Both the position numbers and the translations under genes were made by a program. Below are positions 22,222 to 34,428 of a stretch of DNA of 64,000 bases, one piece after another (position 1 is the first letter of the stretch; the number at the start of each line of letters is the position of its first letter). Source of the stretch: a virus; the IMG/VR virus record IMGVR_UViG_3300032323_001868, positions 1 to 64,000 of that record; one strand, 5' to 3'. A model generated the notes under the pieces. That model did not search any database. It had not been told where the DNA came from and saw only the letters and a program-made list of their open reading frames with translations.

Positions 22222-22739
22222 AGAACAAAGTCTATCACAAATTTCGGGGGAGTCAAGAGCCCATCTCTATAATACCCTTAGTATCAAGACATAGTTTGCA
22301 TATCTCAAAGAACATGGTTCCAGAAGCATCTAGCCTATAGTCATAGTCACAGACATGTGGGGTTTTTCTCATATCATTAAAGCGTTTCCATGGGTCGTCA
22401 ATAAATTCATTCATATACTCATTATAGCCCATATGCCCCATAGCCAGAGAACTTTATCCCCTGGTTTATTTACATAGCATGCAGTAGAAGGGTGCTCTTA
22501 AGTTATCTGGTGATGTGACTATAACCTGATTGCATTTAGAGCATTTTGCAGTTACCAAACCATCGTCTTCTAACTTTGATATATGAAGAAATGGGGTTTT
22601 GGTATAGTATAGTTTGCTCATATACCATGTAAATGCTATAAGAATTATTGCTTCCATATGTCTATAGTAGCACATGAAGGTTAACAGAAATGTCCGATTT
22701 GGGTGGTTTGATAGCATAATAAATCTTACTGATATTTTT

Positions 22740-23460
22740 TAGATTTTCTTATGGTGGAGGAAAGTGGAGTGAAATGGAGTATGGAGCGCTTTTATATCTG
22801 GGATCGTAATGTCTTGGGGGCCCCAAACCTCCTATCACAAAACCTTCATATTGTCAAACCTTCATATCCCGATAGCGGATTATACCCCCAAACCATGGTT
22901 TTGTCAAACCTTTATAGCCTAAAAACCCCTATAAATTTTGTAGGATTTTGTGAGATTTTTGTAGGATTTTGCAGAAAAAAATATATAAAGGTTTGGTAAA
23001 TATTTAAAAAACCAGGGAAAAAGGTTTGTCTATCGTAATGTCTTTTATACTAGGGGGTTTGGTACTACTTCGTAATCCCCCGCCAAAAACGCAGGGGATC
23101 GTAATGTCTGATAGGACTATTTGTCTTTGTGAAAGCGGGGGAATTTAAGAGTAGAAACAATCTTACCTATAATAGGAATAGATCCCAAACCTTTATATTC
23201 TGGTTTCTCACTATGCTGACTAAAGGTTTGTCCAACAAAGTAAGGACCACCTTTTCTTGAGAAATAGTTTCTAGTCATAATACCATTATACACCTGGTTT
23301 GACAGAAATAAGGTTTTATGATATAAGGTTTGGCCATGAATGGGGAAAAATATTCGTTCATCGTAATAAAGTTTTGGGGAAAAATTATAACGGATCGTAA
23401 TAAGGTTTTGAGGTTTGATGGTTTGTACGATATGTCCGATTTGATATGATTCGACGTCTG
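22740..23460. repeat. repeat-rich, largely non-coding zone (AAACC/GGTTT about 20x, TCGTAAT 6x)
   Basis: direct reading; contains one probable 53-aa leaderless ORF (23117..23278, minus). Confidence 0.65.
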
Positions 23461-23479
23461 ATCGAACGTCCCGCCCCTA

Positions 23480-23752
23480 CTACCGATTATTCTCGTAGTA
23501 GTAGGTTAGGATTTCTTCTAATGAATCAAACTCATCTTCTTCGTCTGCACCAATAGACTCCATAAACACTCGCCATGTTTCTGCTACATAGCGTTCAGCA
23601 TCTTTGGTTGGTGTGACAAGACCCTCATGGGTTAGATATGCAATCGGCAATCCCAAGTCGTTGTACTGAATAAAATCTTGGAACTCCTCTTCGTCTCTGT
23701 ACTCTGCATACAGTTTGTTAAGGATTTCACACATCTTAGAAAAGTCGGTCAT
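23480..23752 (-). CDS. hypothetical early protein
   Basis: ORF track; FIQYNDLGLPIAY. Confidence 0.65.
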   Translation of the reverse strand: MTDFSKMCEILNKLYAEYRDEEEFQDFIQYNDLGLPIAYLTHEGLVTPTKDAERYVAETWRVFMESIGADEEDEFDSLEEILTYYYENNR

Positions 23753-23969
23753 GGTTATATTCTACTCTCTTTTGTTCTACTAGGTCAAGTTGAAACTCTG
23801 CGGATTCTAATACTTCTAGAGCCCTGCGATAAACTAGATACGGAAGACTGCGTGACATATAGACACCAACTTTTTCTAGGTCAAGATGAAAGTCACTAAG
23901 TAGTACGCCAATCTTCTCTGCAACCTTTTCTTCCTTGCTCTTGGTGTCAGACCTGCTGATTCTATACAT
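23736..23969 (-). CDS. hypothetical early protein
   Basis: GAGGAG RBS. Confidence 0.65.
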   Translation of the reverse strand: MYRISRSDTKSKEEKVAEKIGVLLSDFHLDLEKVGVYMSRSLPYLVYRRALEVLESAEFQLDLVEQKRVEYNHDRLF

Positions 23970-24060
23970 AGTACTCCTCTCAATCCATTATATCAAAAAA
24001 GTGGAGAGGGGGCAAGCCCACCACAAACCTGCCCCCGTCTCATTATGTGGACGGTTGACC

Positions 24061-24432
24061 CTATACCGTCTCTTGCTCAGCGGAAATCATATCCAGGTGA
24101 TAACTAATAAACTTATCAATTGGCTTGGTTAGGTCACCAATAGTAACAGTATTATTAATTAGGTCGACTTCCTTGTACTCATACTGTTCCTCATGATTTA
24201 CTTCCCCAACATAAATACCATAACCAGTCTCAGTGTTATGGTCTTCTTGCAGGGCATTGATAATGATACGGGTAGCATATGCTGTATCATGCATCCGAAT
24301 GCGTGGCATTGCAAGGTCAAGGGCCCGTGCTAGGTCCATGACGCCAGAATCCCCACCCCAATGTGAGTATAGATTAATATTCTGGTTTGGGTCTTCAGTA
24401 GTTACGATAGTGAAATTGGTTCGTGCTCCCAT
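24061..24432 (-). CDS. hypothetical early protein
   Basis: GAAAGGA RBS; MGAR..LYSHWGG..YATRI. Confidence 0.7.
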   Translation of the reverse strand: MGARTNFTIVTTEDPNQNINLYSHWGGDSGVMDLARALDLAMPRIRMHDTAYATRIIINALQEDHNTETGYGIYVGEVNHEEQYEYKEVDLINNTVTIGDLTKPIDKFISYHLDMISAEQETV

Positions 24433-24495
24433 GGTAGGGTCCTTTCGGTAGTGTGGTTTAAATCAATGATATCAAATAGCGCTGCCTGTGTCCAA

Positions 24496-24828
24496 TTACT
24501 CATCAGGATCCAAATCCCCCTCAAAGTCGATAACTACTTTAGTAACTCTGCCTTCGTTATTTACCTGTACAAAAACAGGGTAGACGCCATCGCCGTAGCC
24601 AGTAGAAAATGCAACGGCTAATCCATTAGAAATCTCACCAAACTCATTTTTAACAGTAGTAGCAGATATACCTTGATAAGAGTACTGACCTTCTTTGCCT
24701 TCTAACTCCCATGGTTCGTTATGGCATGTGTCATAGCCATCTAGGTAGCACGGGTCACCTACAATTGCTTGTCCGCTGTCTACATGGAAAGACCCTGCAT
24801 AAGTTAAATCATTTAGTGTGGTGTTCAT
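24496..24828 (-). CDS. DUF4241-like protein
   Basis: VDSGQ..GDPCY...GYGDG.YPV. Confidence 0.6.
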   Translation of the reverse strand: MNTTLNDLTYAGSFHVDSGQAIVGDPCYLDGYDTCHNEPWELEGKEGQYSYQGISATTVKNEFGEISNGLAVAFSTGYGDGVYPVFVQVNNEGRVTKVVIDFEGDLDPDE

Positions 24829-25247
24829 GCTTTCTCCAATTCTAGTAGTTCTTCAAGTGTACAACAATTTGGGCATTTGTCAAACTCGCTGTATCTATCA
24901 TTAATTAGTTGGCCATCGTCTTCAGTCTCTGTACCGCAGCCCTCACAGCAATACCAGTAAGAGCCCATCTTGATTTGAATCGTGGTATTTTCAGGAACAG
25001 GCTTTTCGCTAATAAGATAACCAATCCTATTTACATAGTGCCAGCCTGACCAAATATAGGTGCCACCATCATCGCCATCTCCATACATCCAGATACGGTT
25101 TTCTGGCTTTGACTTGACATACTCTACCTCGTCACCGTAGGTTTCAAACATCAAACCATCTAATGAGGCATACTCATCATAGTTATTAACCATGAATTTG
25201 AATTGCTCATCTGCTTCTTCAAATGTCATTTCGATAAAGTTGTCCAT
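24825..25247 (-). CDS. hypothetical protein with C-terminal zinc ribbon
   Basis: FETYG, GWHYVNRIGY, CEGC..CPNC. Confidence 0.65.
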   Translation of the reverse strand: MDNFIEMTFEEADEQFKFMVNNYDEYASLDGLMFETYGDEVEYVKSKPENRIWMYGDGDDGGTYIWSGWHYVNRIGYLISEKPVPENTTIQIKMGSYWYCCEGCGTETEDDGQLINDRYSEFDKCPNCCTLEELLELEKA

Positions 25248-25418
25248 TATAGTTTCCCCTCAATGTTGGTGGAGTCACAGTCTGCACAGTGCCCATTGGA
25301 TACATCATCATACCAGTCTGTCTCTACATCTTCAAGTTCCCCCGCAGAATTATATATACCTAACTTGTGAGATGTTTCATCATACCAAAACTTATTAGTC
25401 TGGCCACAATCAAGGCAC

Positions 25419-25700
25419 TTAGGCATTCTTGTTAGTCCTATCTGATATAGCAAATGCTAGTTGATATGTAAGGGCATAGACACTAGACAAAGCGTCCATG
25501 TATCCTGAATTATATAAGCGCTCAACGGTGTCTTCATATTCCTCATCAGAACCAAGTTCATCAGAGTTCTCCAGCAGAGGCACGAGTATCTTCTCACACT
25601 CATACATCATATTCTTAAGTTCACCATGGAGGATATCAGTACCTGACTCTCCTAGGTCTACGAGTTTTTGCAGTCTTGGGTTTAGTTGTGTTGTTTCCAT
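25419..25700 (-). CDS. hypothetical early protein, predicted leaderless
   Basis: ATG falls exactly at predicted +1 of promoter 25707-25728. Confidence 0.65.
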   Translation of the reverse strand: METTQLNPRLQKLVDLGESGTDILHGELKNMMYECEKILVPLLENSDELGSDEEYEDTVERLYNSGYMDALSSVYALTYQLAFAISDRTNKNA

Positions 25701-25706
25701 TACTCT

Positions 25707-25728
25707 ATCATATCCTGTGCCACTGACA
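25707..25728 (-). promoter_or_regulatory. PafBC/RecA-NDp-type promoter
   Basis: TGTCAG-TGGCACAGGA-TATGAT. Confidence 0.7.
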
Positions 25729-25860
25729 AAAGGTGGCGGGTATTATAAATCTCAGCCTCTTTAGTCCTATAGAAATGATGACTATTAACATAGTCAATCT
25801 TCTCAAGGTCTTGCATAAGACTTATCTCATGTATCTTCATATACTCAATGAAGGCATGCA

Positions 25861-26043
25861 TTAGATTACTTCTTCATCTAGTTCGACTTCATCTTCTTCA
25901 TACTGTTCATCTACCTCAATAGAATAAACTTCAGGGAATCCGTAGTCCTCGTACTCCCAGCCCATCTTTTCTGCTTCTTCTTCGTTGTCTGCTTCTACTT
26001 CGTAGTTGTATTCTACAATCACCTTCAGGTCATACATTGGCAT
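25861..26043 (-). CDS. acidic hypothetical protein
   Basis: GAAAGGA RBS; EVEADNEEEAE. Confidence 0.65.
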   Translation of the reverse strand: MPMYDLKVIVEYNYEVEADNEEEAEKMGWEYEDYGFPEVYSIEVDEQYEEDEVELDEEVI

Positions 26044-26662
26044 TGTGGGATTTCCTTTCTGTGGTCTTAATATTAATTATAAGGGTTGGTGTTGATTTTT
26101 ACAACTTTTGAGGATGTGATACTAATCACAGGGGCCATCTGTTCTGGCTCTACCGCTGTTCTTACGACAAAGGTATCCAATGAGCAAACACAGGCGGGAT
26201 CGTGATTAGGAGTCTTATTAGTGATAACTTCCATCAGGGCATCACAATCAGTACAAACATAACTATACTTGGTCCACATAGGCAACCTCCATTAAATAAG
26301 CATCAGTATCACATACATCACATAGGTGTACATAATCACTGTCGTCCCAATTAGACATACACATGTTACACCTGGTCATCATCCCTCCCAATATTGCATA
26401 ATGGTATTCATTGTGATATGGAGATTGCAATCACAGTCTTCTCCACCCATGTTCTCATGGAACTCAAAGTGTGATAGGTTGTCCTCATAAATTTCCATTA
26501 CGAGTTCTGATATTGTGTATGGTTTGTAGGTGGTAGTCATATATTAATTGTAGCCTAGAACCTGGGAAAAATCAACTCTATCGTAATTACTTTTTTAATT
26601 GTATTTATTTAGTTACTGATAAGTATGTCCTATTTGTACCATTTTGGAACGTCCCGCATTTG

Positions 26663-26736
26663 CGATCTGTACGGGACTTGAACCCGTGATCTCTACCGTG
26701 ACAGGGTAGCGAATTAACCAACTATTCTAACAGACC
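26663..26736 (-). tRNA. tRNA-Asp(GTC)
   Basis: GGTCTGT/ACAGATC, CTACC-CTGTCAC-GGTAG, GGTTCAAGTCC; no CCA. Confidence 0.9.
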
Positions 26737-26738
26737 AG

Positions 26739-26767
26739 TGAGCAGTTTTATTTCATGCTCAGGAAAT
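26739..26767 (-). ncRNA. H-type pseudoknot repeat, copy B
   Basis: ATTTC-C-TGAGCA-T-GAAAT-AAAAC-TGCTCA. Confidence 0.72.
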
Positions 26768-26771
26768 TGTA

Positions 26772-27788
26772 TCATGCTAGTTGCATGACATTCTGCACAA
26801 CTTTCAGCAGACGATTCTTTTCTGCGTTGATAGCAGGGTCAAATCCACTTGCACTTGCAAGGATAGATTCGTTATTGCCACCTCGTGCTGTACGATACCA
26901 GTCAAGGCGTTCTGTAAGTGCATTGAAAGCGCCCCATGCAGAGCCAGCAATCATGCCGTTAAATTCGCCTGTGTAAATATCGTTGATAATATCTACCTTG
27001 TTCTCCCACTTCTTGACGGCACCCTTAGAATCTTTTTCAGGCTTAGGGTAAGCAGCGAGAATAATATCGTTGAATTGCTTAGCATTGACTTCCTTCTCGA
27101 ACATAGCCTTAGCCATGATGTCAAATTCGTCCATGTATGCATTAGCAAGACCAAGAGTCTCACGAGCAATCTGCACTTTACCATTGGCAGTCTGCGTGTG
27201 GCGAATCTTGAATGATTGCTTGATACCATTCTTCTTCTTGCGTGAGCCTAGTGCAAGATTAAGAGTATTAGCGCACACCACACGAACAGGTGTAATGCTT
27301 GCTTGAATAGCGATTGAGCCATCGTGTGATGTGTTGATGAGCAAATAAGTCTTTACCTTATCTGCAACACCGCTAGGGTCTAGTACAGTCTCACGCTCTA
27401 ATGCAAGAGAGCCGAATACTACACGCCCACCCTTGATAGCGCCAGCGGTTTCCCAACGACCACCACCATCTAGGATATTGTCACCGAATGAGAATAAGTC
27501 TTCATTCTGCAATACATGATAACGCTCACCAACTACACCAAGAACATCTGTCTGGGTATTAGTTGTAGGGTTAGTGCGTACGACATATTGGTATTCTTTG
27601 TCGCTTGTTAAGTGTGATGGAATTGGCATTTCTTCAAGACGAACATTCCAACCATTGAGGTTTGCAGCCTCTAGCATTTCTGCGGTTGTTTTTTCTTCTG
27701 TGAATACAGTACCCAATCCATGCCATGCAGGTTCACGGAAAGATGCAAAAGATGCCTTGCCGTTTTGTGATTCTAGGTCATGTGCCAT
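26772..27788 (-). CDS. DUF932 / TIGR03299-like phage protein
   Basis: REPAWHGLG, Y..LQN, ETAG...GG..VF, SHDGS, TPVRVVCANTL, RHT. Confidence 0.85.
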   Translation of the reverse strand: MAHDLESQNGKASFASFREPAWHGLGTVFTEEKTTAEMLEAANLNGWNVRLEEMPIPSHLTSDKEYQYVVRTNPTTNTQTDVLGVVGERYHVLQNEDLFSFGDNILDGGGRWETAGAIKGGRVVFGSLALERETVLDPSGVADKVKTYLLINTSHDGSIAIQASITPVRVVCANTLNLALGSRKKKNGIKQSFKIRHTQTANGKVQIARETLGLANAYMDEFDIMAKAMFEKEVNAKQFNDIILAAYPKPEKDSKGAVKKWENKVDIINDIYTGEFNGMIAGSAWGAFNALTERLDWYRTARGGNNESILASASGFDPAINAEKNRLLKVVQNVMQLA

Positions 27789-27820
27789 GAGTGTTTCTCC
27801 TTTTTGTTGTTGATAATATA

Positions 27821-27842
27821 ACTATACACCAAGCCAGCGACA
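27821..27842 (-). promoter_or_regulatory. PafBC/RecA-NDp-type promoter
   Basis: TGTCGC-TGGCTTGGTG-TATAGT. Confidence 0.6.
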
Positions 27843-27953
27843 TATGCAAATCAGGATAGTTAGATGTGTACAAATCGGACATTTTTAAGGGTGTCGTAAT
27901 TCACATCGTAAATACTTGACAAGATCAACTTTTGCGGGACGTGCAATAAAAAG

Positions 27954-27984
27954 TGAGCCGTTTACATGGACAATGCTCAGGTCC
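27954..27984 (-). ncRNA. H-type pseudoknot repeat, copy C
   Basis: GGAC-C-TGAGCA-TT-GTCC-ATGTAAAC-GGCTCA. Confidence 0.62.
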
Positions 27985-28030
27985 CTTGCCTAGTTTAAAG
28001 ACATTCGACATGTCTATTAGTAGCCCCCTA

Positions 28031-28483
28031 CTAAATATTATCCTCTGCCTGAATTGAGCGGGTATCAACATTGAAATCATCGATTGAATAATCAAATGAG
28101 TCAACACTGAATTCAAGTGTGTTGGCCACATCATCTGCGTCAACATCAAATGGTACTTCAATCTCAATCTCAAACTCTACAACTGCATTAACAGTTACAG
28201 TCTTGGTTAGTTCAAAGTCACCAATCTGTGCAAACATCTCTGCAACCTCGTGAGTGAACTCACGGTTACCAAGGCATTCAATAACATATTCTTTGATTGC
28301 ATCCTTGGTTGCTTGGTGTGCTCGTTGTTCTGCATACAATGATTGTGAGTGTTCGGATGAACGGTCCTGCAATGAGACAATCATCGCATCCTTCTTCTCA
28401 ATTAATTCCTGCAGCGCTACAGCCTGATTCTGAAGAAATTCTCGTGTCATGTAGTATTCATTGGTTAGTACTGGCTGGTCCAT
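28031..28483 (-). CDS. hypothetical early protein (coiled-coil N half)
   Basis: GAAAGAGG RBS. Confidence 0.7.
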   Translation of the reverse strand: MDQPVLTNEYYMTREFLQNQAVALQELIEKKDAMIVSLQDRSSEHSQSLYAEQRAHQATKDAIKEYVIECLGNREFTHEVAEMFAQIGDFELTKTVTVNAVVEFEIEIEVPFDVDADDVANTLEFSVDSFDYSIDDFNVDTRSIQAEDNI

Positions 28484-28515
28484 GGGGGCCTCTTTCTGTT
28501 GTTGTTATTAATATA

Positions 28516-28537
28516 AGTCTAGCAGCGGGTACCGACA
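28516..28537 (-). promoter_or_regulatory. PafBC-type promoter, full consensus
   Basis: TGTCGG-TACCCGCTGC-TAGACT. Confidence 0.75.
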
Positions 28538-28576
28538 AATGCAACTTAATGGTCTTAATAGTCTTACATATTGGGA

Positions 28577-28592
28577 TGTGATTAATCTCACA
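28577..28592. promoter_or_regulatory. CRP/GlxR-type box
   Basis: TGTGA-TTAATC-TCACA. Confidence 0.7.
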
Positions 28593-28616
28593 CTGCACGT
28601 CGCAAAAAACAGTGAG

Positions 28617-28645
28617 TGAGCAGTTTTATATCATGCTCAGGATAT
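28617..28645 (-). ncRNA. H-type pseudoknot repeat, copy D
   Basis: ATATC-C-TGAGCA-T-GATAT-AAAAC-TGCTCA. Confidence 0.72.
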
Positions 28646-28649
28646 TTAA

Positions 28650-28820
28650 TTACTTAGATGTTTTCACCATTGCAAATCGGTGTGAGCCGTTTGCTAACTT
28701 TAGTGAAACTCTAGTAAGTTTAGAGTTGATAGGTGTGAAGTTGCTAATGCGACCAGTAACACCTGTCTTGCTTGTGGTGAACAGATCACCGATTTGATAT
28801 GTATATCCGCCTAGTGTCAT
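28650..28820 (-). CDS. small beta-rich (SH3/KOW-like) protein, 56 aa
   Basis: MTLGGYTYQIGDLFTTSKTGVTG..; AAAGGA RBS; paralog of 29537..29698. Confidence 0.7.
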   Translation of the reverse strand: MTLGGYTYQIGDLFTTSKTGVTGRISNFTPINSKLTRVSLKLANGSHRFAMVKTSK

Positions 28821-28858
28821 TTGTTTTTTCCTTTTGTTAGTGGTGGTATTAAATTGTG

Positions 28859-28887
28859 TGAGCAGTTTTGGCTCTTACTCAGGAGGT
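28859..28887 (-). ncRNA. H-type pseudoknot repeat, copy E (short stem 1)
   Basis: CTC-C-TGAGTA-A-GAG-CCAAAAC-TGCTCA. Confidence 0.55.
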
Positions 28888-28989
28888 CTGCTTCTTTAGG
28901 TCTGCAGTAACCTTGCTCTATAGTATTTCTATTATCGCCCTAATCAGCCTGGCGAAATGAGTGGGGCTTTTACACCCCACCCAACTTTG

Positions 28990-29412
28990 CTAGAGGTAGC
29001 GAGCCACCGCATTGTATGTTGAAGTATTAACTACTTCTTCATCTGTCATCTTGAGGATACGAATTGCGTTTGTGATTTCTTCCTTCTGCTCACGATATGT
29101 GTGCTGATGGATAACCTCGAAATCCTTAGTTGGCTCTGTTGGCATATCCTTTTCGGATACTGTCAAATCGAAGTCAATGTTAAGGCAGTTATTCCATGAA
29201 CGATATGAAGTGCGGAAGTTTTCTGCCTTCTTGATGTTTGCTACTGCATAGTCAATAAGTTCCTTCTTATACTTCTCATACTGCTTTTGATACTTTGCTT
29301 CGTTGGCTTCTTGTGATGTGTAGTCTGCTTCTAGTTTAGCAAGTGCGCCTTCTAGTGCCTTGATTACCTTTGGTGTTGCGATTTTAACTGAGATTGCTTT
29401 TGCTCTTGACAT
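28990..29412 (-). CDS. hypothetical early protein
   Basis: AAAGGA RBS, strong codon bias. Confidence 0.75.
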   Translation of the reverse strand: MSRAKAISVKIATPKVIKALEGALAKLEADYTSQEANEAKYQKQYEKYKKELIDYAVANIKKAENFRTSYRSWNNCLNIDFDLTVSEKDMPTEPTKDFEVIHQHTYREQKEEITNAIRILKMTDEEVVNTSTYNAVARYL

Positions 29413-29459
29413 GGTGTTCCTTTTCTTTGGTGGTTGATATTTCTATTATAGGGGGTGGA

Positions 29460-29487
29460 TAAGCCTTTTTGCAACTTGCTTAGGTTG
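29460..29487 (-). ncRNA. H-type pseudoknot repeat, variant copy G
   Basis: CAAC-C-TAAGCA-A-GTTG-CAAAAA-GGCTTA (compensated stem 2). Confidence 0.6.
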
Positions 29488-29536
29488 GTTCACGCCTCTT
29501 GTTTATAGTGGCTGTACGCTAACCACTATGAAAGGC

Positions 29537-29698
29537 TTACGCCTTCCAAGTTGTCCAGCGTGTTGAGCCATTTACATCTAACTTAACACGAACTGTGTCC
29601 TTTGATGTTGGTACGATTTCAACGATTGTGCCTGTGACCTTTGACTTCTGTGAAGTGTAAGTGTCGCCGACCTTGTATGTTGCTACTGCTACTGTCAT
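29537..29698 (-). CDS. small beta-rich (SH3/KOW-like) protein, 53 aa
   Basis: MTVAVATYKVGDTYTSQKSKVTG..; GAAAGGA RBS. Confidence 0.7.
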   Translation of the reverse strand: MTVAVATYKVGDTYTSQKSKVTGTIVEIVPTSKDTVRVKLDVNGSTRWTTWKA

Positions 29699-29804
29699 GT
29701 TTTTTCCTTTTCTGTGTTGGTTTGTTATATTTCTAGTATATCCGAGAAATCTCAGAAATACAATTCCTAGCCTAGAGAATCTCATATTTTGAGACCCTTT
29801 CCCC

Positions 29805-29820
29805 TGTGATATAGGTCACA
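29805..29820. promoter_or_regulatory. CRP/GlxR-type box
   Basis: TGTGA-TATAGG-TCACA. Confidence 0.7.
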
Positions 29821-29887
29821 AGTTGCCTGTGATAAATAGGATAAGGAAACATATCCCTAGCCATAGTATGAATTTGTCCATAGTTCC

Positions 29888-30610
29888 CTACTTTTTGGTT
29901 GCACTAAATACTATATCAGATTTCTCATAAATACACAACTTGCAACTAGCGCATGCAGACCCTTTCTGTGAGATAAGTGGAATAGCCTTTTTATTCTCAG
30001 GGCACTTAGCCCCAGGCTTGCCTGTTAACTCCTTCATGTCTTCTTGTCCTATTAAGAAATTTTTGGCAAGGTATGCAAGGGAGATATTATGATCTGCTTT
30101 AAGTCCTATACCTATAGCCTTATTATCGCTATCTGTGGAATAGTATAGTGAAAGATTAGGAATGTCTTTTAGAATAAGCGCTGCAGACTTAACTCTGGTA
30201 TATACCCAGAATTGAATGTCTGGATACTTATCAACAACTACCTTCCATGCATATGCATAAGTATCATTAAAGAAATCTCCGTCCCAGTGGATACGGAATT
30301 GCTTAGGTGCATTGCGCTTATCGCACTCTGCATTAAAATCATTAATCATTTCATTAAGTAGACGGACCATAGTTTCTCCGTCTGCATTGCGTAGTAGTTC
30401 CCAGTTATGCAATAGGTTTTTCTTTACTGTTGGGAATATCTTTTCTAACTTGCCTGCATAGCAAACACTTTCGCAGACACTAGTAGCGCCAGGACATGAA
30501 TAGTTTTTACCTGCAGGTAATCCGAATGTGTTAGCGATACTTGCTTGTTTTCCATTAGGGGTGACGGCATTAGCAACTTTTCTATCTTTAGAGCGTAGTA
30601 GTTTAGTCAT
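29888..30610 (-). CDS. GP88-family protein (Cys-cluster, radical-SAM-like)
   Basis: FGLPAG..CPGAT..C...CYA, FRIHWDGDF, FW.YTR, C..C.LC. Confidence 0.75.
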   Translation of the reverse strand: MTKLLRSKDRKVANAVTPNGKQASIANTFGLPAGKNYSCPGATSVCESVCYAGKLEKIFPTVKKNLLHNWELLRNADGETMVRLLNEMINDFNAECDKRNAPKQFRIHWDGDFFNDTYAYAWKVVVDKYPDIQFWVYTRVKSAALILKDIPNLSLYYSTDSDNKAIGIGLKADHNISLAYLAKNFLIGQEDMKELTGKPGAKCPENKKAIPLISQKGSACASCKLCIYEKSDIVFSATKK

Positions 30611-30755
30611 GGTGGGACCCTCTTTCTTTTTTTAATTTTAGCATTAGCGACTGACATTTCTTTCTGTCATATTTCTTTTTATTAGGTACCGCAGAGGCCG
30701 CATTGCTACGGCGTAATTCCATAAGCCTGCGTAATTCCTCGGGTGTTTTTTTCAT
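30603..30755 (-). CDS. small basic protein (LRRSNAA motif), leaderless
   Basis: TTGTAT-N17-TAAAAT-N6-ATG. Confidence 0.55.
   Translation of the reverse strand: MKKTPEELRRLMELRRSNAASAVPNKKKYDRKKCQSLMLKLKKERGSHHD
30635..30656 (-). promoter_or_regulatory. PafBC/RecA-NDp-type promoter
   Basis: TGTCAG-TCGCTAATGC-TAAAAT. Confidence 0.68.
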
Positions 30756-30826
30756 ATAATAATTTTAGCAAAAATCAGGGAAAAATACAAGTTGGTCTTA
30801 ATTAGGGTAAATCGGACATTTGTGGT

Positions 30827-30840
30827 GCGGGACGTCCCGC
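30827..30840. repeat. perfect palindrome GCGGGACGTCCCGC (cassette-boundary box)
   Basis: half-sites recur at 23466, 26649, 27934, 32135, 33342. Confidence 0.7.
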
Positions 30841-30845
30841 CTTTG

Positions 30846-31088
30846 CTACTCGTCTTTTTCTATATAAACATAGAGGTCAACATATGTGTCGTGTGCAATT
30901 GTTATTGTATCTGGTTCACCATACACATCAACACAATCGATAAAGTAATTGTCTCCAGTTGAATCAGAATTGATATCAATTACTTCGATGAGTTCATCAT
31001 CAATCTTGATTAGATCATCAGGCATCAGAGAACCTGGTGTTAATTTATCTGCCCATACTAGATCCATGTTGTTTATTGTATCAGCCAT
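30846..31088 (-). CDS. hypothetical early protein
   Basis: ORF track. Confidence 0.6.
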   Translation of the reverse strand: MADTINNMDLVWADKLTPGSLMPDDLIKIDDELIEVIDINSDSTGDNYFIDCVDVYGEPDTITIAHDTYVDLYVYIEKDE

Positions 31089-31164
31089 TTATTCGTCCTC
31101 TTCGCTAGAAATACATTCATAACAATCACAATATTTTGAGTGGGGAATAAAAAAATCTTCCATA

Positions 31165-31500
31165 TTACCCCTCATCATATTCTAGTGAGAGTGGGAAGTC
31201 ATCAGACCCATCTTGCCAGTCATCGGCTGGCTCAATAAATACATCAAGGTGATGCTGGTCTACGATAGCGTGTGCAGGTGCTTGAGTTTCTCCACGATAA
31301 AGAATCTGAAAGTCACCAACCTTCGGCATGTCAATCATGCGGTCATAGTCCTCATCATAGAAGGCGTCAATGGCTTCAATGCAAGGTTGCACCATTTCTG
31401 CGGGGACTGGAGGATAGTGATTAGCCTTAAGGTGATAGAGAATCTGAGTCTCCAAGTCAAGGACTTCTTCTTTAATTCCTAGTGCTGTAACTGAACCCAT
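31165..31500 (-). CDS. hypothetical early protein
   Basis: HL.ANHYPPVP..MV.PC.EAI, IVDQHHL. Confidence 0.7.
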   Translation of the reverse strand: MGSVTALGIKEEVLDLETQILYHLKANHYPPVPAEMVQPCIEAIDAFYDEDYDRMIDMPKVGDFQILYRGETQAPAHAIVDQHHLDVFIEPADDWQDGSDDFPLSLEYDEG

Positions 31501-31501
31501 A

Positions 31502-31717
31502 TTACTTACCCCCTACATTTCCATTACGATAAAAGATTTTGGTGTGCATTTTGCCATTAGGCTCTGACAAGTTAATTGTGCGATATTCTTTTGCATCTCC
31601 ATAGTCGTTGCATGCCATGAACGCACCAACGGCAGAAAGAGCATCACTATAGCGACCAACCCATTCAGGGCTAGTGCTATTGTCATTAGTTGAAGTAACT
31701 GAGTATAAGTATTCCAT
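31502..31717 (-). CDS. hypothetical early protein
   Basis: AAGGAG RBS. Confidence 0.65.
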   Translation of the reverse strand: MEYLYSVTSTNDNSTSPEWVGRYSDALSAVGAFMACNDYGDAKEYRTINLSEPNGKMHTKIFYRNGNVGGK

Positions 31718-32008
31718 TAGTTGTAACTCCTTTTACATTCTGAGCATAGATAGTTTAATTTGCAATAGCAACCTACTGCGTTTGGGCGGAGCATATCCGT
31801 TTCATAGTATTCGTCATAGAAATCCATACTAGTTAGCCTCTTTTGTTAGGAATAGTTGGTCAATGTAGTCATAGCCTATCATGGCTTCTACCTCTCGGTC
31901 AAGGTAGCAACGGAAGCAATAGAGTTCGGTTACATCTACTGCATTTTCATTACACTGCATGCATACATGTGCGGTCATGGGAGCCTTCTTTCTTAAGTTG
32001 ATATAAAT

Positions 32009-32030
32009 ATCCTATCATATGGGGGTGACA
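32009..32030 (-). promoter_or_regulatory. PafBC/RecA-NDp-type promoter
   Basis: TGTCAC-CCCCATATGA-TAGGAT. Confidence 0.62.
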
Positions 32031-32069
32031 AAGTGAAGTTCATAAGCCAAGTTCTGCGAAAATTAATGG

Positions 32070-32085
32070 TGTGAACTTAATCACA
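32070..32085. promoter_or_regulatory. CRP/GlxR-type box
   Basis: TGTGA-ACTTAA-TCACA. Confidence 0.7.
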
Positions 32086-32094
32086 CTTAATGCC

Positions 32095-32134
32095 TGTGGA
32101 TAACTACCTGGCTTGTGGATAACCCTGTGGAAAA
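32095..32134 (-). promoter_or_regulatory. three DnaA boxes
   Basis: TTATCCACA at 32095 and 32114, TTTTCCACA at 32126 (minus strand). Confidence 0.72.
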
Positions 32135-32150
32135 CGGGACGTTGAAAATT

Positions 32151-32179
32151 TGAGCAGTTTTAGATCGTGCTCAGGATTT
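32151..32179 (-). ncRNA. H-type pseudoknot repeat, copy F
   Basis: AAATC-C-TGAGCA-C-GATCT-AAAAC-TGCTCA. Confidence 0.68.
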
Positions 32180-32331
32180 TAGTTTATCGCTTTTGATTAA
32201 AACGACTTAGTGTAACCAACTCATTGTGTAGTCTAGAATTTTCTTTGACTAGTTCTATGTTTTGTTTCCAGAATAAAAACATAACTGTTATTGAGCCAGC
32301 AAGTGCAATTATGATTGCAAGTAAATCCCAG

Positions 32332-32523
32332 TTAGTTAGCATTTCTTGTCTCCATTTCCTCGCATGCTTGTGTAAATCTATCACGATTAAAGTTTGGATT
32401 GTCGCTTGCAAAAAAATCTGCAAAGTCATTTACCAAATCTTCCCACCAGTAATTATCTATCATGGCTTTTTGGTATCCTGAAAGAATATCTGCAACTGCT
32501 ACATAGTCTTTGCGTGTCATCAT
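32332..32523 (-). CDS. hypothetical early protein
   Basis: MTRKDY..VA..DNPNF..DRF..AC. Confidence 0.7.
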   Translation of the reverse strand: MMTRKDYVAVADILSGYQKAMIDNYWWEDLVNDFADFFASDNPNFNRDRFTQACEEMETRNAN

Positions 32524-32729
32524 TAGTCTGCCACCTTTAGAATTGCGTACGAGCCGTTTTCGTTGATTTCATCTAACGCAGGCTGAATGCGTGGTGCAAG
32601 AACTTCTTTTAGCAGGCCTTCAAGCATTGTTTTACGCATTGTTGATTCTAGTGCAAGAATCTGCATTCCTACTGGATGAGTTTCGTCAATTTCTGTAACG
32701 AACTTTAGAGAGTGTTCAACTTTTACCAT
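32523..32729 (-). CDS. hypothetical early protein
   Basis: TAATG coupling. Confidence 0.65.
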   Translation of the reverse strand: MVKVEHSLKFVTEIDETHPVGMQILALESTMRKTMLEGLLKEVLAPRIQPALDEINENGSYAILKVAD

Positions 32730-32911
32730 TAGAGTGTAGCCTTTCCACGAAGTGTTCCACGAACGCCGAGTGCGTCACATGATAGTTTTACAGATACGCC
32801 AGCAGGTAGCGTGTTAGGATAAGTGCTGATAAATTGTGCAACTGCACCTCGTGAGGGTAGTTGAATGGTTTTAACTGTACCATTAAAAGTTTCTAGATTT
32901 ACTTTATACAT
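32729..32911 (-). CDS. hypothetical early protein, paralog of 34854..35027
   Basis: shared KV.L..G..I.L.S..V..FI..Y..TL..VK..CD.LG..G.L.G. Confidence 0.7.
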   Translation of the reverse strand: MYKVNLETFNGTVKTIQLPSRGAVAQFISTYPNTLPAGVSVKLSCDALGVRGTLRGKATL

Positions 32912-32912
32912 A

Positions 32913-33128
32913 TTAGTTTTCCTTTCTTACTGCAACTGTACGGAATGTTTTGCGACCCCATGTGTTAGAACCGCTGTAAGGTGCGATTTCTACAAGGTAG
33001 GTGTCGCAATCTGCATACCATACCGCTTTAGGGTGTGGCTCTGCACTTATGATTTCTCCACGCATTGTTTTGGAGATATATTCTTTTCCCACAAGTAGGG
33101 ACTGGACATTGTAGACATTTGCAGACAT
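32913..33128 (-). CDS. hypothetical early protein
   Basis: first gene after promoter 33164-33185. Confidence 0.65.
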   Translation of the reverse strand: MSANVYNVQSLLVGKEYISKTMRGEIISAEPHPKAVWYADCDTYLVEIAPYSGSNTWGRKTFRTVAVRKEN

Positions 33129-33163
33129 AAGTTTGTCTCACTTTCTTTTTTGTTAATATAGCA

Positions 33164-33185
33164 AGTGTAGCATTTTTGGGTGACA
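33164..33185 (-). promoter_or_regulatory. PafBC/RecA-NDp-type promoter
   Basis: TGTCAC-CCAAAAATGC-TACACT. Confidence 0.6.
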
Positions 33186-33223
33186 ATATCAAATTGAGAA
33201 TCGGACATATCAGACAAATTGAA

Positions 33224-33239
33224 TGTGAGGTTGGTCACA
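33224..33239. promoter_or_regulatory. CRP/GlxR-type box
   Basis: TGTGA-GGTTGG-TCACA. Confidence 0.7.
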
Positions 33240-33273
33240 TCGTTTTGCTACTTTATTTAATTTTATAGATAGA

Positions 33274-33314
33274 ATCTTAGCATAAGTAATCTTAAAAGTC
33301 AAGACGACACGCCG
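33274..33314 (-). promoter_or_regulatory. sigma-A promoter with upstream WhiA-type GACAC site
   Basis: CGGCGTGTCG-TC-TTGACT-N17-TAAGAT. Confidence 0.55.
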
Positions 33315-33470
33315 TAAATGTAATGTGATTTACACCACAGGGGGACGTCGTGCACGTCGCATTTTTATGCAATGATCTGCATAGTCATTCAGTCAAGTGT
33401 AACCAGATTGAATAAATAAATAACCCAAATAAAAAAAAGAATGCAGCGTTACCATTTAAATAAAATTCTT

Positions 33471-34163
33471 TCATCGCTCACGCACCTCCGCTAATTCGTT
33501 GCGAAATGATTCCGCAGTCTCATGTTGTTGTTTCAATGTGAGCGAAGCCCACAAGTAACCCATTAGGTAAGCGTTACCACTATCTACATCGCCACGAATA
33601 TCTTGTGACATAGATTTTACATATTGAAGTAATTGCATATCTGCCATTTTTATATCTCCCAACAATTTTCGCAGGTAAATTTTGTGAAGTCTCTATCTTT
33701 CAATAGAATCTCCATGAAGTTGTTATCGCATACAGAGCAAGCGATTAAGTAAGTATCAGCCAGACGATAACGCCATGGCTCTGATTTAGACAAGAGACGA
33801 TTCTCTTGCACTTCTGAAGCGATTAGAATTGACATTAGTGTTGCTCCTCGCAATCTTCTACATAGTTGAATTCGCAGAAGTAGCAACCCATGGTTTCGCC
33901 ATGTGCCTTGCATACATACTTGAACTGTGATTCCTCACAGCAATAACGCATTTCATCTTTGATTAGATAAAATTCATTTTGGTCAATGTAGGTATCTATC
34001 ATCAGTTACCTGCCTTTCTGCAACGAATACCATCGTTGCCTACATAGCGATTTAGACCTGCAACGAAAGTAATTGTTTCGTTACAGTAGAAGCAATCGCC
34101 ATTACGATTAGGGAAGTGCAGAGTAGGCTTAAGGCTATCTGCGGGGGCATATAGTGAGTTCAT
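33471..34163 (-). other. run of four tiny, mostly Cys-rich ORFs (33471..33647, 33650..33835, 33835..34002, 34002..34163)
   Basis: TAATG/TGATG overlaps, GAAAGG RBS. Confidence 0.6.
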
Positions 34164-34193
34164 GTGAACCCCTTTCTTTAACTTGATATAACT

Positions 34194-34215
34194 ATCTTAG
34201 CATGGGGGTCTGACA
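34194..34215 (-). promoter_or_regulatory. PafBC/RecA-NDp-type promoter (leftward)
   Basis: TGTCAG-ACCCCCATGC-TAAGAT. Confidence 0.68.
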
Positions 34216-34428
34216 AATTGACTCAGACATTACGGAATAAAACGGACATTTAGTACAAAACTTTTTATGTGATTAGCGCCACATTTCGGGGGATTCAATA
34301 ACATTTCCATAACAATCTTAACACTATCGGCGTGTCGATTTGACAACGTGCTGGCACGTCCAGTGTGATGTAGAACACATGTGATGCATACCACAAAGTC
34401 CAGAATGTCCGATTTGTACCCCTCAAAA

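Follow-up and report, generated by a model that had tools for sequence, protein, structure and literature searches.

Actinophages are known to have dispersed repressor sites with a consensus that varies among related phages, and the stoperators of the Cluster A mycobacteriophages (L5, Bxb1) and of Streptomyces phage R4 are the system functionally closest (PMC6550527, PMC9283540, PMC10276819) to the element considered here, a short box that recurs eight times in the early region of an uncultured lake phage. The DNA analysed, referred to below as the window, is the first 64 kb of the 89,761-bp IMG/VR virus contig IMGVR_UViG_3300032323_001868. Stoperators, which occur in temperate phages, are 13-bp asymmetric sites found genome-wide; they follow the direction of transcription and are recognized by the immunity repressor. 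Their consensus tracks the phage's own regulator, and they block RNA polymerase between genes as well as at promoters. In architecture, the closest system is that of the promoter-early stem-loop (PeSL) cassettes of T4-type phages (PMC2839356, PMC4122927). There, a promoter and a stem-loop define the element and recombination between elements has been shown, mini-circles included, with no genome-private word described. The relatives of the lake phage include the Streptomyces BE-cluster phage Coruscant, which has a 12-kb terminal repeat (PMC7650747).

Here we report that the boxes of the window lie at the boundaries of its early units and that, in related phages, the same boundaries carry a box of another sequence. 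A single word serves the boxes of a genome and is particular to that genome; it is restricted to the early island, at positions that stay fixed.

Distribution and placement of the boxes

A preliminary description of the sequence had proposed that the early island is an array of self-contained units punctuated by an ACGT-core box. All of the boxes that it listed are present at their positions, and the description of the array holds. The word GGGACGT has seven matches at six sites in the full contig (23466 and 26649 on the minus strand, 27936 on the plus strand, 30829 on the plus together with 30832 on the minus strand, and 32136 and 33342 on the plus strand), every one of them within 23466-33348; the 25.8 kb of the contig that lie beyond the window add none. 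By chance 1.32 matches would be expected per 64 kb, and among 100 dinucleotide shuffles not one reached seven. GCGGGACGT occurs five times, the palindrome at 30827 included, and GACGTC three times, all inside the island. A second form, TGCACGTCGCA, is found at 28594 and 33351; GCACGTC alone is not significant, its four matches being reached by 8 of 100 shuffles. The GGGACGT sites and the CGACGTGC variants together make up eight boxes with the common core GACGT (Table 1). All 11 copies of ACGT in 23400-34400, where about 39 are expected from composition, lie inside these eight boxes.

Boxes aside, the density of ACGT is uneven along the contig, with zero copies over the 22.5 kb of 16000-38577 as against about 1.2 per kb in the structural genes (52000-76000). 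A possible cause is the order of DNA entry, or else a different gene pool.

Box placement was read directly from the sequence over 23.45-34.36 kb of the window. On the gene strand, a boundary begins with the end of a unit, which may be a stop codon, the tRNA-Asp or a hairpin repeat with its T-run; the box follows, and behind it lie CRP/GlxR-type sites (pattern TGTGA-N6-TCACA), DnaA-type sites, the motif AAATGTCCGATTT (motif B) and promoter-like hexamers. Further copies of the hairpin repeat are at 26738-26764, 28617-28645 and 28858-28885, and motif B recurs at 22690, 23432, 27872 and 34405, with variants at 26625, 33199, 34243 and 35567. The sequence TTATCCACA is the DnaA-box consensus.

Table 1. 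Coordinates of the boxes and of associated features (positions in the window unless a locus is named)
Feature	Coordinates	Strand	Description
Box 1	23453..23474		GACGTC, then ACGTCCCGC (GCGGGACGT on the gene strand); 5 nt past the stop of 23480..23752, the last open reading frame (ORF) of the island
Box 2	26649..26657		GCGGGACGT on the gene (minus) strand; 4 nt past tRNA-Asp
Box 3	27934..27944		GCGGGACGTGC; about 10 nt past a degenerate copy of the hairpin repeat
Box 4	28594..28604		TGCACGTCGCA, variant with the CGACGTGC core; 12 nt past a hairpin repeat; abuts the CRP-like site TGTGAGATTAATCACA
Box 5	30827..30840		Perfect 14-bp palindrome GCGGGACGTCCCGC; 5 nt past the stop of 30846..31088 and 5 nt before motif B
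Box 6	32135..32142		CGGGACGT; 7 nt past a hairpin repeat; between hairpin repeat with T-run and DnaA-type boxes
Box 7	33342..33361		Double box GGGGGACGTCGTGCACGTCGCA; farther from an ORF end
Box 8	34346..34360		ACGTGCTGGCACGTCC (GGACGTGCC on the gene strand); head of the island, divergent control region; farther from an ORF end
Hairpin repeat TGAGCA-N11-TGCTCA with T-run	32150..32176	-	Directly past a stop codon; repeat family D1
TTTTCCACA, then two TTATCCACA	32095..32134	-	Kept in nearly all relatives, right behind the variable box
CRP/GlxR-type site TGTGATTAAGTTCACA	32070..32085		Similar sites adjoin boxes 4, 7 and 8
Motif B AAATGTCCGATTT, core CGGACAT	30809..30819	-	Core also found in Streptomyces phages
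Early island	23480..34163	-	About 35 small ORFs in at least 8 units, including the DUF932 and GP88 genes
DUF932 gene	26772..27788	-	Early island
GP88 gene	29888..30610	-	Early island
tRNA-Asp(GTC)	26662..26736	-	Closes one early unit
Acidic ORF of about 90 aa	L008:17224-17472; L063:16095-16370; 5 more loci		TCGA-box loci

Consensus scans of the island placed neither promoters (39 against 33.8 +/- 5.7) nor canonical terminators (8 against 7.1 +/- 2.9) above chance, so the labels promoter and terminator in the window rest on reading of the sequence (hairpins plus T-runs) and on the relatives; a hairpin with a T-run is plain in the lake relatives and in the BE-cluster phages alike.

Several further elements were seen at the boundaries. 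A degenerate copy of the hairpin repeat, missed by the repeat finder, lies ahead of box 3 at 27955-27990 (minus strand) and reads CCTGAGCA-N14-GGCTCA with a T-run. The motif GGCGTGTCG, which is not private, is present at 33296-33306 and 34326-34336; many relatives have four to nine copies per locus, frequently right behind the box or abutting TTGAC. Three putative promoters on the minus strand (32006-32032, 33160-33190 and 34190-34217) share TTGTCA-N8-TGnTAnnnT and TATAT(C)AA.

Related lake phages carry other words at the same junctions

A search with the GP88 protein yielded 80 related loci at 76-90% identity. Most of them lack GGGACGT. All 80 have a box at the same junctions, and each genome uses a GC-rich word of its own, in five to nine copies and in both orientations. 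The private words include TTTCGACCCG, TCGAACCG, GGCCCGGC, TTCCGGGSC, TGCCGGCCC, CTCGGGGC, GCCCGACA, GGGGCCCGA, CCTAGG..CCTAGG, GGCCAGC, GCACGTGSC, GGACGTGSC and GGGACGTCC. The automatic choice of a private 7-mer per locus also caught shared motifs (CCTGAGC, GACACGC, CCACAGG), so the counts do not rest on it. A scan of the collection with the 14-bp palindrome of box 5 returned unrelated contigs only and was uninformative.

The exchange of the word is seen at the junction of box 6, which was aligned in 16 genomes (alignment A1). There, the word is swapped between a conserved hairpin arm and T-run on one side and conserved DnaA boxes and a conserved CRP-type site on the other. Flanks that are 87-90% identical enclose words as unrelated as TGCACGTGC, TGCCGGCC, CCTAGG..CCTAGG and TCGACCCGC. 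Because the boxes differ at half or more of their positions despite flanks of such identity, gradual drift as the sole source of the differences was rejected. Confinement to the island is also seen in two complete genomes of 112-113 kb, where the core word is limited to the island of about 11 kb in 8 of 8 copies (GACGTC in G005, CTCGGG in G004).

Words of the cultured BE-cluster phages

Genes and layout of the island are homologous to those of the terminal repeat of BE-cluster phages, so the island is probably the counterpart of their terminal-repeat early region, that is, the terminal repeat of this phage, collapsed in assembly. Set against this is the observation that related complete assemblies are circular, with overlaps of 123-127 bp. 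In the BE-cluster phage Jay2Jay, homologues of the DUF932 and GP88-like genes lie in the left 11.4 kb, a segment that recurs at the right end.

These cultured phages carry junction words of the same kind. In Coruscant, the 13-bp palindrome GGCGCC-S-GGCGCC is present 16 times per 12.2-kb terminal repeat and 0 times in the unique part (about 109 kb) at up to one mismatch. Each copy lies behind a GGGCCC-TTCG-GGGCCC hairpin, with the predicted start about 65 nt downstream and a second palindrome behind it. In Jay2Jay, each small gene is followed by the same GGGCCC-TTCG-GGGCCC hairpin, the 15-bp palindrome TGTCCGG-N-CCGGACA, CGGACAT motifs and a TAGACT-type promoter. CGGACAT being also the core of motif B in the window, this motif is conserved from soil to lake phages. 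Within the Jay2Jay genus, GTCCG-N3-CGGAC stands at the junctions of Jay2Jay, Daubenski and NootNoot and GGGCCG-N3-CGGCCC at those of Bmoc, a difference that points to parallel change across sites. Perfect palindromes of such length, present in 13-16 copies and changed in parallel have the look of the sites of a dimeric DNA-binding protein. In a literature search of incomplete coverage, no description of the boxes was found for BE-cluster phages.

The BE-cluster phages encode Lsr2-like and ParB-like proteins in the same region. In addition, gp6 of Jay2Jay (L227:2799-3239), an early protein of the terminal repeat, has a ribosomal L7/L12 C-terminal domain (E 1e-7).

A box could alternatively be a structural element that has no specific reader, such as a GC clamp, a component of the terminator, or a GC-rich stretch that keeps AT-binding nucleoid proteins such as Lsr2 from spreading. 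Consistent with a role of this type, the box lies 0-3 nt behind the T-run in most genomes, some copies fold into short hairpins (GCGGG-ACGT-CCCGC, GGGGC-TCGG-GCCCC and the plus strand of box 7), GGGCC-N4-GGCCC is frequent in relatives at the junction ahead of the GP88 operon, and the BE-cluster phages have the Lsr2-like proteins mentioned above. However, a structural role needs neither one word of 7-9 nt per genome nor a different word in a near-identical context, a hairpin is impossible for most copies in the window, and the terminator hairpin of the BE-cluster phages is separate from the palindrome. We consider this explanation very improbable. Other roles, as a Chi-like site, a phage RNA polymerase promoter, replication iterons or a pac site, were rejected, since the boxes are dispersed over the junctions and stand in both orientations, with a purge elsewhere.

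Mosaicism of the island and the position of breakpoints

The nearest relative changes from one ORF of the window to the next in almost every case, with or without a box in between, often with an allele-like jump in identity (about 90% to about 55%). Synteny is broadly kept, with gains and losses of genes inside operons as well as at junctions. Since box types are unmixed within each genome despite this free, gene-by-gene exchange, the uniform word of the island requires selection by a factor acting in trans.

The preliminary description had also offered the boxes as recombination points for cassette shuffling. Crossovers at the boxes, whether PeSL-like as in T4-type phages or by a site-specific system, would be in keeping with the composite of unit end and promoter found at each junction (PMC2839356), and with units and single genes that have moved between junctions, such as the homologues of the 71-aa and 56-aa ORFs of the window. 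We took breakpoints as the ends of indels or replacements of at least 150 nt (n=5916) and counted them as near a box when within 30 nt. Near boxes were 7.9% of the 5916 ends, as against 2.7% by chance, and 11.9% of the intergenic ends, as against 6.3%; this two- to threefold enrichment is inflated, because the divergent word itself terminates alignments. In contigs from other lakes, joints lie beside box 1 (23450/23736) and box 8 (34221/34364), and also elsewhere. On the other side, about 90% of the breakpoints are away from the boxes, the nearest relative switches at nearly every ORF boundary, and indels fall within operons too. Private words offer no homology between different genomes, a stretch of 7-10 nt does not suffice for homologous exchange, neither a recombinase nor an integrase was seen among the annotated ORFs, and no gene inversions were found although the boxes stand in both orientations. 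Shuffling at the boxes is therefore weakly indicated by the breakpoints and, as an account of what the boxes are, seems to us improbable. In the comparison of breakpoints and conservation across relatives that had been suggested with this idea, what proved conserved is the position of the boxes; their sequences are not conserved, and most breakpoints lie elsewhere.

Two observations on gene order belong here. The 71-aa ORF (32913-33128) and the 56-aa ORF (28650-28820) stand in different units in different genomes, many relatives having, for example, the order '11 12 | 10 16 17 18' where the window has '10 11 12'; and the 56-aa ORF and a 53-aa ORF (29537-29698) resemble paralogues.

A proposed role of the boxes as dispersed operators

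These observations fit best with the box as a dispersed operator or roadblock site for a sequence-specific protein, probably an early product of the phage, and to this we assign about an even chance. The operator or insulator for a phage protein that was suggested in the preliminary description accounts better than the other explanations for the comparative data, namely a word that is uniform, private and replaced in place, and palindromes that are confined to the repeat. One protein would read the box at each boundary of an early transcription unit, and occupancy of every box would put the entire island under simultaneous control. The outcome could be the shut-off of early transcription, or a block to read-through that insulates one unit from the next in the manner of a stoperator. 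A private word would prevent cross-regulation among relatives; its specificity would turn over quickly, possibly driven by competition between co-infecting relatives. That turnover may be steered by the avoidance of restriction, since the lake phages purge short palindromes. We infer the binding of a protein, its phage origin and the effect of its binding from the pattern of the words.

A number of points weigh against this interpretation. In the window, only box 5 is fully palindromic, the other boxes being 9-nt half-sites in either orientation, and the distance from box to promoter varies from 40 to 160 nt. Pfam searches on about 46 ORFs of the island and its neighbourhood found no DNA-binding domain, ParB_N (PF02195) is absent from five lake-phage genomes, and among the protein families of the 20-kb loci none follows box type cleanly. 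When the early proteins of the Jay2Jay type were compared with those of Bmoc, several ORFs were more divergent in Bmoc, and no decisive candidate emerged. Finally, an operator model alone leaves the purge of TCGA, CCGG, CTAG and ACGT outside the boxes unexplained.

In the search for a reader, the presence or absence of 841 protein families was compared with box type, a comparison confounded by relatedness. The only clean association was that of an acidic ORF of about 90 aa, which was found in every TCGA-type locus that extends to its slot (7 of 7) and in none of the other loci. The slot lies between the homologues of the window ORFs 23736..23969 and 23480..23752, and the ORF has no Pfam match; we regard it as a lead, and not as the reader of the boxes. 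Among the ORFs exclusive to the two genomes of the GGGACGT type, nothing convincing was found.

Purged palindromes and restriction

The tetranucleotides AGCT, CCGG and CGCG are each absent from the 89.8-kb contig, where about 304, 106 and 106 copies, respectively, are expected from composition, and ACGT has 62 copies where 304 are expected. CGCG is almost absent in all related loci, and the genomes split into an AGCT-free and a TCGA-free group. Some related genomes lack GGCC or GTAC, or are depleted of CATG.

The core of the box is often a restriction-type palindrome that has been erased from the rest of the same genome. In G001 (65 kb), there are 9 copies of TCGA where 218 are expected, all 9 in boxes as TTCGAC; in G002 (80 kb), 8 of the 9 copies of CCGG (87 expected) are in boxes; and the 8 copies of CTAG in L058 are likewise all in boxes. 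The strongest purge of TCGA is found in the loci with TCGA boxes, and depletion of CTAG in those with CCTAGG boxes. Avoidance elsewhere does not hold for CTCGGGGC and GCCCGACA and is weak for GGCGCC in Coruscant.

This relationship could be explained in a few ways. First, restricted words may find their last refuge in the boxes, since no copy can change without the others. Second, the regulatory word may be drawn towards a sequence that is vacant elsewhere in the genome. Third, a restriction-type enzyme may itself be the reader of the boxes. The boxes would then be kept targets of a host restriction or modification enzyme or of a phage nuclease, and cutting or methylation at the unit boundaries of a redundant terminal repeat would be functional, for example in the timed inactivation of early units, in the production of recombinogenic ends or as a signal of methylation state. 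In favour of such targets, box cores are classical palindromes of 4-6 bp purged elsewhere in the same genome (TCGA, CCGG, CTAG, ACGT), the type of box matches the purge in the TCGA and CCTAGG loci, and restriction avoidance is extreme in this family. Yet the methyltransferase families PF01555 and PF00145 (N6/N4 and C5, respectively) are absent from five genomes (two complete), there is no nuclease that follows the type of box, and the retention of eight cuttable sites should be costly. Moreover, the boxes of Coruscant are palindromes of 13-15 bp, which exceed the length of a typical restriction site, and GGCGCC is only mildly depleted outside them (7 in about 109 kb); several lake words, such as CTCGGGGC and GCCCGACA, are not palindromic; and the correlation between box and purge comes from few independent lineages. 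We regard kept targets as unlikely. A wider coupling of restriction avoidance with regulation, in which either a few host restriction or modification sites are kept, at unit boundaries of a redundant terminal repeat only, and used by cutting or methylation, or restriction pressure repeatedly forces the operator in all its copies, and its reader, to switch word, is possible but on the unlikely side. The forced switch, if true, would be a regulatory arms race driven by host defence, and the link to purged palindromes would show that host restriction shapes regulatory as well as coding sequence.

The genome and the early island

The contig, with an estimated completeness of 82%, belongs to an uncultured lake phage of which near-identical pieces are present across many lake and freshwater metagenomes. 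A structural module of the siphovirus type lies in the window, with a tape measure protein of 2532 aa, and the head protease is about 50% identical to its counterpart in the Streptomyces BE-cluster phages (Stanwilliamsviridae). Genes are on the minus strand from about 16 kb to 34.16 kb of the window. Most ORFs of the island belong to no family, the exceptions being the DUF932 protein, the GP88-family protein and a weak RegB-like match; the last is a 140-aa early ORF (28990-29412, minus strand) whose Pfam match to the T4 RegB endoribonuclease stays below threshold (E 9e-4, 19.7 bits, cut-off 27). Rfam found nothing but tRNAs, and a near-identity search of the island against cultured phages gave zero matches. 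Beside the island, a non-coding stretch of about 730 bp (22720-23450) is dense in AAACCTT/AAGGTTT repeats, inverted repeats and GACATTACGATCC-type repeats, and is a candidate for an origin or a repeat boundary.

The early regions of large virulent phages hold most of their genes of unknown function, and their control is poorly understood. In the phages considered here, one small word appears to link all early units and switches at all sites between close relatives despite gene exchange. If a protein reads this word, it would be a master switch of the early programme and could set exclusion between related phages. Since the cultured phages Coruscant, Jay2Jay and Bmoc carry such words, the proposal is directly testable.

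Comparison with known systems

The boxes resemble stoperators in that many intergenic copies of one short word follow a phage-specific consensus, and the action proposed for them, a block to RNA polymerase between genes and at promoters, is the same. Unlike stoperators, they are confined to an island of about 11 kb, are palindromic or stand in either orientation, and are placed after the ends of units; furthermore, stoperator phages are temperate, whereas a cultured relative of the box phages is predicted to be virulent.

With the PeSL cassettes, the island shares repeated modules of a unit end and a host-type early promoter (putative in the window) between small accessory genes, in a plastic region of mosaic gene content that is rich in small genes of no known function; GC-rich stem-loops are common to both. 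The sigma-70-type early promoter of a PeSL, joined to a stem-loop at which transcription from upstream ends, may be represented in the window by promoter-like hexamers ahead of the unit starts and by hairpins with T-runs ahead of the boxes, recognized by reading, with the consensus scan at chance. The island differs from PeSL arrays in that breakpoints are mostly off the box and in that the phages are actinophage siphoviruses.

Two further comparisons concern layout and control. Early regions in long terminal repeats of large virulent phages include the pre-early region of T5 and the host-takeover module of SPO1. Such regions, and apparently the island too, are divided into numerous short operons of small genes that each have a unit end and a strong host-type promoter to themselves. 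In the BE-cluster phages, the homologous DUF932 gene lies within the repeat (in two places per record); terminal-repeat status of the island in the window is probable. In the KorB-OB regulon of IncP plasmids, about a dozen copies of one palindrome lie at variable distances from promoters, and one dimeric protein controls all operons. The boxes are likewise a short word at variable distances from many promoters, and the BE-cluster phages encode ParB-like proteins in the same region; in contrast, the five lake-phage genomes searched lack the ParB_N domain. An integron-type cassette array, with its integrase, attC-type recombination sites and promoterless cassettes, is a different arrangement: the island has no integrase among its annotated ORFs, a promoter-like region for each unit and a largely syntenic gene order. 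What is new is that each genome has a private word at junctions conserved among 80 relatives, that the copies of the word switch together within one genus of cultured phages, and that the word is tied to purged palindromes.

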